The notes under the pieces are model-generated. The model was not told the DNA's origin and did not search any database. It saw only the letters and a program-made list of their open reading frames with translations. From assembly GCF_988243305.1 (NCBI RefSeq), contig NZ_OZ547136.1: a stretch of 64,000 nucleotides of DNA. One strand, given 5' to 3'. The translations under genes were made by a program, and so were the position numbers. Below, piece after piece: positions 40,544 to 41,967 of this stretch. Numbering within the stretch: the first letter of the stretch is position 1; each line of letters starts with the position of its first letter.

Positions 40544-40704
40544 ATTTTCTGTTTTCTTGCATCCTTGCGAATCTTTATCTGATGTTGATTCAACAGGTTA
40601 GTGTGAAAACTCTTCTCGGTGCATTTTGATTTTACCCTACGCATCGGGAAAAATTGGTGGTCAAATCTGGGGTCAGGTTAGTTCGATAATGGAGTGACCC
40701 CCAT

Positions 40705-41967
40705 ATATCCCTTACCGACGCAAAAATCCGCACCCTCAAGCCTTCTGATAAACCCTTTAAAGTCTCCGATTCTCACGGTCTGTATCTGCGGGTCAAGCCG
40801 GGTGGCTCCCGCCACTGGTATCTCAAATACCGTATTAGCGGTAAAGAATCCCGCATTGCGCTGGGTGCCTATCCAGCCATCTCCCTGTCTGATGCGCGAC
40901 AGCAACGTGAAGGTATCCGTAAAATGCTGGCGCTGAATATCAACCCGGTACAGCAGCGGGCTGCTGTACGTGGCTCACGAACACCGGAGAAAGTTTTTAA
41001 AAACGTGGCGCTGGCGTGGCATAAAAGTAACAGGAAATGGTCGCAGAACACCGCCGACCGTCTGCTTGCCAGCCTGAACAATCACATCTTTCCGGTCATC
41101 GGGAACCTACCTGTATCAGAACTTAAACCCCGTCATTTCATTGACCTGCAGAAAGGGATCGAGGAAAAAGGTCTGCTGGAGGTTGCGTCCCGCACACGGC
41201 AGCACCTGAGTAACATAATACGCCATGCGGTCCATCAGGAGTTAATCGATACGAACCCTGCAGCAAACCTTGGCGGCGTGACCACACCTCCTGTCAGACG
41301 GCACTATCCTGCCCTGCCGCTGGAGCGGCTGCCTGAACTGCTTGAACGTATTGGGGCATATCATCAGGGCCGTGAACTGACCCGGCATGCCGTTCTGCTG
41401 ATGCTGCATGTGTTCATTCGCTCCAGTGAACTGCGTTTCGCCCGCTGGTCAGAGATTGATTTCACAAACCGAGTCTGGACGATACCCGCGACGCGAGAAC
41501 CCATTATTGGCGTGCATTATTCCGGCCGCGGGGCAAAAATGCGAATGCCGCATATCGTCCCCCTCTCAGAACAGTCCATCGCCATTCTGAAACAGATTAA
41601 GGATATCACCGGTAATAATGAACTGATCTTCCCCGGCGACCATAACCCGTATAAGCCAATGTGTGAAAACACGGTCAATAAGGCACTGCGGGTGATGGGT
41701 TACGACACGAAAAAGGATATCTGCGGTCACGGCTTCCGGGCAATGGCATGCAGTGCGCTGATGGAATCGGGTTTATGGGCAAAGGACGCAGTAGAACGCC
41801 AGATGAGTCATCAGGAGCGCAATACCGTGCGCATGGCTTATATTCATAAGGCAGAGCACCTGGAAGCCCGCAAAGCGATGATGCAGTGGTGGTCGGATTA
41901 TCTGGAAGCATGCCGAGAATCTTATGCACCGCCTTATACAATTGGTAAAAATAAGTTTATCCCATAG
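40705..41967 (+). CDS. int: P4-like tyrosine integrase of the HPI; the canonical start codon appears to be ATA, so possibly a pseudogene or N-terminally truncated
   Basis: In-frame translation from 40705 reads (I)SLTDAKIRTLKPSDKPFKVSDSHGLYLRVKPGGSRHWYLKYRISGKESRIALGAYP..., a typical P4-family integrase N-terminus; the first ATG/GTG/TTG in this frame is at 40924. Confidence 0.75.
   Translation: MSLTDAKIRTLKPSDKPFKVSDSHGLYLRVKPGGSRHWYLKYRISGKESRIALGAYPAISLSDARQQREGIRKMLALNINPVQQRAAVRGSRTPEKVFKNVALAWHKSNRKWSQNTADRLLASLNNHIFPVIGNLPVSELKPRHFIDLQKGIEEKGLLEVASRTRQHLSNIIRHAVHQELIDTNPAANLGGVTTPPVRRHYPALPLERLPELLERIGAYHQGRELTRHAVLLMLHVFIRSSELRFARWSEIDFTNRVWTIPATREPIIGVHYSGRGAKMRMPHIVPLSEQSIAILKQIKDITGNNELIFPGDHNPYKPMCENTVNKALRVMGYDTKKDICGHGFRAMACSALMESGLWAKDAVERQMSHQERNTVRMAYIHKAEHLEARKAMMQWWSDYLEACRESYAPPYTIGKNKFIP

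Follow-up and report, generated by a model that had tools for sequence, protein, structure and literature searches.

An ATA codon at the ancestral start position of the Escherichia coli HPI integrase gene: a probable lesion in the relic of an already non-excisable island

An integrase gene that opens with ATA raises two questions, namely where its protein begins and whether the change of start codon has fixed the surrounding island in the chromosome. Such a gene lies in a stretch of 64,000 nucleotides from RefSeq assembly GCF_988243305.1 (contig NZ_OZ547136.1), which was analysed as a whole and is called the window below. The first-pass annotation, made from the letters alone, described the gene as a start-codon point mutant of the HPI integrase, and suggested that the mutation could lock the island in place by preventing excision. 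The features needed to examine both proposals are as follows.

40468-40543, plus strand: tRNA-Asn (GTT) gene, the asnT-type HPI integration target (ARAGORN; RefSeq annotation of identical records)
40528-40544, plus strand: 17-bp core CCAGTCAGAGGAGCCAA, the same 17-mer as the direct repeat of the HPI-ICE (Paauw 2010)
40545-40704, plus strand: 5'-UTR of int and left arm of the island, nearly invariant between genera in alignments
40687-40689, plus strand: in-frame TAA, which shuts the frame upstream
40691-40694, plus strand: GGAG Shine-Dalgarno sequence, 10 nt ahead of the start position
40705-40707, plus strand: ATA where the ancestral gene has its ATG start, M1I at the DNA level (start of the PGAP CDS)
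40705-41967, plus strand: int (intB) frame of 420 codons plus stop, equal by coordinates to WP_024165620.1
40924-40926, plus strand: first canonical in-frame start, an ATG at codon 74 (ORF listing)
42161-43465, minus strand: ybtS, the first yersiniabactin gene (ORF and RefSeq annotation of identical DNA)

From ATA the frame continues as SLTDAKIRTLKPSDKPFKVSDSHGLYLRVKPGG and runs uninterrupted for 420 codons, counted from ATA, to a stop at 41965-41967. The substitution that distinguishes this codon from ATG is a G-to-A change at position 40707. The TAA closes the frame, and a start farther upstream is therefore impossible. An ORF listing and a codon check confirmed the annotation's description of this region, in which the integrase frame follows directly after the TAA, the GGAG lies 10 nt upstream of 40705, and no in-frame ATG, GTG or TTG occurs until 40924. 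Between 40690 and 40924, only near-cognates (ATC, CTG and ATT) are found in frame. [quoted passage not shown] Since ybtS is the neighbor of the integrase, the integrase belongs to the HPI. In all of the records examined, RefSeq/PGAP places the start of the int CDS at the position of codon 40705, and in records identical to the window this ATA-initiated CDS is called intact (WP_024165620.1). The gene escapes a pseudogene flag because ATA is among the initiators allowed by translation table 11. Judged from its sequence and setting, the gene is a P4-like tyrosine integrase of the E. coli HPI with an ATG-to-ATA start mutation.

Another explanation would be that nothing is missing, and that the true start is the ATG at 40924, with the first 73 codons forming an untranslated leader. 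This ATG is the first canonical start in the frame, and it is preceded, at a distance of 10 nt, by a weak AAGG. However, the stretch upstream of it encodes most of a recognizable domain:

40711-40965, plus strand: arm-type DNA-binding domain, residues 3-87 (Pfam PF13356, E = 3.4e-24)
41374-41856, plus strand: tyrosine-recombinase catalytic domain, residues 224-384 (Pfam PF00589, E = 7.9e-20)

Between these two lies the central core-binding domain (PF22022, residues 98-191). The arm domain of PDB entries 3jtz and 3rmp (88 residues), which we take to be that of the Yersinia HPI integrase, matches int residues 2-81 nearly residue for residue (E = 4.9e-46, about 98% identical), and residue 2 of 3jtz pairs with residue 2 of int when ATA is counted as residue 1. 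A product initiated at Met74 would lack residues 1-73, that is, most of the arm domain, so that any initiation at this codon would yield a protein without that domain. Moreover, homologues in seven species have ATG at the position of 40705, and full-length int from codon 2, including the stretch upstream of 40924, shows a dN/dS of about 0.15 in deep comparisons. A start at 40924 thus appears extremely improbable; neither the E. coli homologues nor those of other genera begin there. As for the rest of the protein, NCBIfam PRK09692 scores 230 bits, under its own cut-off of 434, and no solved catalytic domain was matched by sequence. The motifs IRSSEL (238-243), KMRMPH (278-283), HGFRAM (342-347) and RMAYIH (376-381) were assigned to the catalytic residues (R...K...HxxR...H/W...Y) by inspection only. 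The replacement R271H of the window allele sits between IRSSEL and KMRMPH.

The ancestral state of the start codon was sought in one genome per species, using a degenerate pattern that tolerated any ATN at this codon. ATG was found in all six homologues from other genera and species (Phytobacter, Klebsiella pneumoniae, K. spallanzanii, Raoultella, Izhakiella and Pantoea), and also in the paralogous integrase of the pks island. Within E. coli, R13, O104:H4 and Ryan0026 have the ATG that the annotation had expected at this codon, and FDAARGOS_497, 98206 and MS20677 have ATA. The 60 nt upstream of the start are nearly invariant among E. coli and the six other homologues, and the GGAG sequence is kept in every aligned allele and genus. 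On these alignments, ATG is the ancestral start codon of int, and the gene in the window is a start-codon point mutant, as had been suggested.

A single-base difference from some reference sequences may suggest a sequencing or assembly error, and nothing else speaks for one. The identical base, however, is present in 929 independent complete genomes, and JE86-ST05, among others, matches the window at 100.0% identity from 40468 to 63900 (23.4 kb), which leaves an error with practically no probability. The 929 genomes were found among 5,426 complete E. coli genomes by means of a 40-mer probe in which each 28-base megablast seed spans the variable base, and they include Nissle 1917, CFT073, UTI89 and ATCC 25922. 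By its specific int-ybtS spacer, the HPI itself was detected in 2,259 complete genomes. Three HPI-type haplotypes with ATG were counted in 621, 613 and 131 genomes, again with 40-mers, all of whose seeds also span a base diagnostic for the HPI rather than the pks-island integrase. The sum of the alleles (929 + 1,365 = 2,294) is close to the spacer count, so that essentially all islands are accounted for. ATA therefore makes up about 41% and ATG about 59% of E. coli HPIs, and the notion that the ATA allele is peculiar to this strain is contradicted; at this frequency the base needs no confirmation from raw reads. The allele is already present in hundreds of public annotated genomes; in the literature that could be searched, we found no mention of a start-codon variant of the HPI integrase.

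The diagnostic base matters, as the pks-island and HPI integrases differ by one base in the probe stretch. A first count of the ATG allele (1,287 genomes) was dropped, its match in CFT073 being the pks-island integrase beside clbS. The apparent discordance within ST73, with ATA in Nissle and "ATG" in CFT073, was an artefact of the same kind: the HPI int of CFT073 has ATA, and its protein is the same as in Nissle. K-mers and other short probes directed at the 5' end of int will thus cross-match the pks-island gene.

ATA occurs on at least three diverged int haplotypes, represented by the window and UTI89, by MS20677, and by Nissle, which equals CFT073. The mutation is therefore old. Int codons 1 and 29 show a four-gamete pattern, which points to recombination among the alleles, and a single origin of ATA is therefore not proven.

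We now turn to the possibility that the change from ATG to ATA was the event that locked the island in the chromosome through loss of integrase-mediated excision. Loss of AUG should lower Int about 30- to 5,000-fold, and Int is needed for excision; according to the part of Lesic 2004 that is relayed in PMC2704930, excision requires attL, attR, Int and the directionality factor Hef. The far border was examined in complete islands of other genomes, among them that of JE86-ST05, which is 100.0% identical to the island in the window. In the ATA islands of JE86-ST05, FDAARGOS_497 and CFT073, an AT-rich stretch of about 650 bp separates fyuA from the remnant of an inverse autotransporter, beyond which chromosomal genes follow. 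The same junction between fyuA and the inverse autotransporter is found in the ATG islands of R13 and O104:H4. In none of these five genomes was an attR copy of the 17-mer observed beyond fyuA, and in all five the 17-mer occurs only at tRNA-Asn genes. In FDAARGOS_497, the one genome searched for it, no ORF for Hef or another RDF was found between fyuA and the next gene, the lone ORF of at least 25 aa being a chance ORF of 26 aa. Concealment of Hef as a fusion to the yeeJ-like gene that follows fyuA in FDAARGOS_497 was ruled out, since searches of Pfam and NCBIfam revealed neither an HTH nor an excisionase domain in its N-terminus.

ATA and ATG islands have the border deletion in common, whereas ATA itself is confined to about 41% of islands. 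The deletion must therefore be the older event, and the island cannot have been immobilised by the change of start codon. This agrees with the literature, in which the island is fixed by a unique 3'-border deletion in all ECOR strains but ECOR31 (Schubert 2009, PMC2606025), and the E. coli HPI is described as an "immobile truncated form" (Auvray 2021, PMC8209727). Hence the proposal that ATA fixes the island by blocking excision fails, as ATG islands have the same border and equally lack attR, and we consider a locking role for the mutation very improbable. Immobility of the HPI through deletion of the fyuA-side repeat is already known, and ATA adds one more lesion.

How much Int an ATA allele could still supply depends on initiation and on the transcript. 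In E. coli, initiation from AUA amounts to 1-2%, 0.1-3% or 0.02-3% of that from AUG in different reporter constructs (bioRxiv 10.1101/063800), and the ATA start therefore probably cuts translation of int to 3% or less. In ICEKp1 and ICEEc1, the integrated int lacks its own promoter; its transcription starts at the tRNA-Asn promoter, reaches the gene by read-through, and is attenuated by stem-loops in the 5'-UTR (PMC13023037). The int UTR in the window is homologous to this ICEKp1/ICEEc1-type UTR and nearly invariant. Since AUA initiates weakly and the transcript would already be weak, we infer that full-length Int is close to absent. A structured 5'-UTR was considered as an explanation and dropped, as the fold of 40544-40730 was no more stable than its shuffles (z = -0.52). 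Only one local element is notable, an inverted repeat of 7 bp, GGGGTCA (40669-40675) and TGACCCC (40695-40701), which flanks the Shine-Dalgarno sequence on both sides.

The substitution pattern of int differs with the depth of the comparison. Between E. coli and Klebsiella, K. spallanzanii or Pantoea, dN/dS is 0.10-0.20. Among close alleles, the ratio of nonsynonymous to synonymous changes is 8:2 when the window is compared with Nissle, 6:1 with MS20677 and 6:0 with R13; between R13 and O104:H4 it is 8:2. Such ratios agree with neutrality, under which 76% of changes are expected to be nonsynonymous, and they reject an omega of 0.15 (p = 0.001-0.006). Relative to the outgroup consensus, the window allele has M1I, L29R, E88V, L149Q, M172I and R271H, plus one synonymous change. 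ATG alleles have private replacements too (S2F, P57Q and V101L in one case, D5S and A55T in another), and the relaxation therefore appears general to int of the E. coli HPI, as would be expected if the border deletion had removed the function of the gene. With counts this small, from a handful of alleles, the pattern is compatible with neutrality, and suggests that int in E. coli is under relaxed selection.

Other lesions point the same way. In a UTI89 assembly, the nonsense codon Q394* has been added to the ATA allele. Another E. coli allele carries a deletion; its match stops at int base 123, and PGAP flags it as "frameshifted". This 347-bp deletion corresponds to the intB deletion of bp 124-470 reported earlier (Paauw 2010, PMC2801613). 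Against decay, it may be argued that the frame is open in most ATA genomes, that the Shine-Dalgarno sequence is untouched, and that PGAP calls the gene intact. These points weigh little. Only 3.6% of point changes in int would create a stop, and the alleles are at most 10 substitutions apart, so that neutral alleles, too, would be expected to keep an open frame.

The same intact features may be read in another way, implied by the PGAP annotation, in which ATA is a low-efficiency start that was selected to keep a trickle of Int, for example for action in trans on the pks island or other elements at asn tDNAs with the same core and a nearly identical 5' region, or in which low expression averts harmful rearrangements among those tDNAs. 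Most of the 929 ATA genomes retain an undamaged Shine-Dalgarno sequence and ORF, with an intact CDS in RefSeq, and AUA does initiate at a low level. Moreover, the pks-island and HPI integrase genes have a 5'-UTR and N-terminus in common, and all asn tDNAs carry an identical 17-bp core. Nonetheless, the ATA clade has accumulated substitutions at a neutral ratio (8:2 and 6:1), and the ATA allele of UTI89 has gained a nonsense codon. Orthologues from other genera retain ATG, so that the non-AUG start is not conserved, and the pks island has its own integrase with an ATG start. We therefore regard a selected weak start as unlikely.

A narrower form, in which ATA acts as a "volume knob", seems highly improbable. 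At trace levels, Int would neither recombine the four asn tDNAs at their identical 17-bp cores nor destabilise the pks island, and would keep a residual role in trans. One may speculate that members of the large ExPEC clade with ATA often have the pks island at a neighboring asn tDNA, and that the ST131/R13-type allele, with which the window allele has the derived 29R and 88V in common, would owe its ATG to a selected reversion. This form, too, is disfavored by the neutral ratio of substitutions and by the nonsense codon gained in UTI89.

Ordinary gene decay remains the preferred reading. We estimate a probability of roughly 0.8 that ATA is an old start lesion in the relic integrase of an E. 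coli HPI that was already non-excisable. The HPI of E. coli would first have lost its fyuA-side border, including attR and any Hef, and the border loss would have left the island non-excisable. Int would then have had no substrate for excision, and selection on the gene would therefore have been relaxed. The change from ATG to ATA would have arisen after the border loss, as one of several independent lesions. With the Shine-Dalgarno sequence intact, AUA initiation at roughly 0.02-3% of AUG on a weak read-through transcript would yield near-absent Int. For the stability of the island, ATA would have no consequence, and we infer that the allele has no phenotype.

The biological weight of the allele would thus be small, as that of a common, old and effectively neutral lesion in a relic integrase. 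Its practical weight lies elsewhere. In about 41% of HPI-positive E. coli, calls of an "intact integrase" are over-optimistic as predictors of mobility, because table 11 permits an ATA start in RefSeq annotation. In addition, the start SNP and the substitutions linked to it mark major haplotype groups of the HPI int, and might serve as a typing marker.

Compared with the int of the mobile HPI forms ICEEc1 and ICEKp1, the gene in the window is the same gene: it adjoins tRNA-Asn, shares its strand, has the same 5'-UTR, is followed by ybtS, and is built of the same arm, central and catalytic domains. It differs from them by ATA in place of ATG and by five more derived changes (L29R, E88V, L149Q, M172I and R271H). 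The island differs as well: the mobile forms keep both repeats, whereas the E. coli island lacks attR and, in the genome searched for it, Hef. An excision-competent island would be flanked by attL and attR and would encode an RDF (Hef or Xis); in the five genomes the attR member of the pair is lacking, as is, in FDAARGOS_497, the RDF. Int itself does not begin with a canonical start codon.

The island agrees with the truncated asnT HPI of Schubert 1999 and 2009 in having lost the fyuA-side border with its direct repeat and in the position of asnT beside mtfA, and we found no structural difference between the two. The layout consists of mtfA, asnT, int, ybtS through fyuA, and a deleted border that runs into a yeeJ-like inverse-autotransporter remnant. 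Only its left part lies in the window, but the whole was confirmed in five genomes, one of which has an island 100% identical to that in the window. A 2025 bioRxiv study left aside "the highly variable intA".

The ATA allele resembles the intB alleles with the bp 124-470 deletion or Q394* in that all are independent loss-of-function lesions of the same relic gene. Unlike the deletion alleles, ATA leaves the ORF open and is not flagged as a pseudogene by annotation pipelines. A different kind of comparison is offered by infC of E. coli, which has an AUU start and in which the non-AUG codon is used in regulation. Unusual start codons of this type are kept among orthologues and form part of a feedback loop. 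Int is like infC in having a near-cognate AUN as its first codon behind a normal Shine-Dalgarno sequence. In contrast to infC, its unusual start is not kept: the orthologues of other genera begin with ATG, and so do about 59% of those in E. coli HPIs, the ATA start being confined to a single clade of E. coli. Int also drifts neutrally.

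Three codons of int, the P4-like tyrosine integrase gene of the E. coli yersiniabactin island (HPI) at asnT, were compared between the window and three other HPI loci (L003, L004 and L017):

40705, + strand, codon 1 (ATA in place of the ancestral ATG)
40789, + strand, codon 29
40966, + strand, codon 88

All four combinations of ATA or ATG at codon 1 with R or L at codon 29 occur. The ST131/R13-type ATG allele, found in about 540 genomes, has derived 29R, 88V and a synonymous CTG at codon 386 in common with the ATA allele of the window. As read from these haplotypes, the mixed combinations would reflect either more than one origin of ATA, or else 5' recombination or reversion. 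The comparison genomes also include an O104:H4 derivative named 'rpoS_ATGtoATA' (L005, NZ_CP136552.1), which, judged by that name alone, seems to have had the start codon of rpoS changed from ATG to ATA by engineering.

Further lesions were found in HPI int. In UTI89 (NZ_CP062228.1, L018 1426-2688), whose ATA allele lies 2 nt from that of the window, an extra C-to-T change creates Q394* and S21F is present as well; PGAP marks the gene as a pseudogene, giving the note 'internal stop'. In many other E. coli, about 300 genomes, the int match stops at base 123 and the gene is annotated as 'frameshifted' (e.g. strain 05_3471, L014 1662-2577). These alleles correspond to the intB deletion of bp 124-470 (Paauw 2010), which is a separate inactivation of int, arisen on the ATG/S2F allele. 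Elsewhere in the HPI, an IS200C insertion divides irp2 of CFT073 into two parts, each annotated as a partial pseudogene (L019 28858-35676), and the yersiniabactin synthetase itself is therefore disrupted in that ATA-allele island.

The gene that follows fyuA encodes an inverse-autotransporter beta-domain fragment:

L007 31205-32011
L020 (JE86-ST05) 31353-32064

It is probably a yeeJ remnant, and no domain was matched in its first ~150 residues. The gene is frameshifted in JE86-ST05 and intact in some other strains, and may be a fusion made by the fyuA-side deletion that removed attR.

Between the other asn tRNA genes, the yeeO-cbl-nac block lies in opposite orientation in different strains (L007 39982-44296 versus L020 40036-44343), an arrangement that suggests an inversion by rearrangement between identical asn tDNA copies. 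JE86-ST05 also carries a second integrase of an asn island, with IS1 after it (L020 44524-46689), and the 17-bp direct-repeat core at the tRNA there has one mismatch. At a different asn tRNA, adjoining nac, strain 23GD35035 (L015 1662-3253) retains a 99-nt remnant of the HPI integrase gene with an ATG start, cut off by an IS91-family element; this is an additional decayed integrase copy, not in the HPI.

The 60 nt preceding the int start (window 40645-40704) are virtually invariant in seven genera, the coding sequence being less conserved, and the Shine-Dalgarno sequence (GGAG, 40691-40694) is enclosed by a perfect 7-bp inverted repeat (GGGGTCA, 40669-40675; TGACCCC, 40695-40701). Such invariance fits an arm-site or UTR-attenuator function. 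The integrase of the pks (colibactin) island, sited at a different asn tDNA in CFT073, is nearly identical to that of the HPI across the 5'-UTR and first ~60 codons (window 40544-40800 versus L016 1465-1721), and k-mers or short probes on this region match both islands; the pks-island integrase has kept its ATG start.
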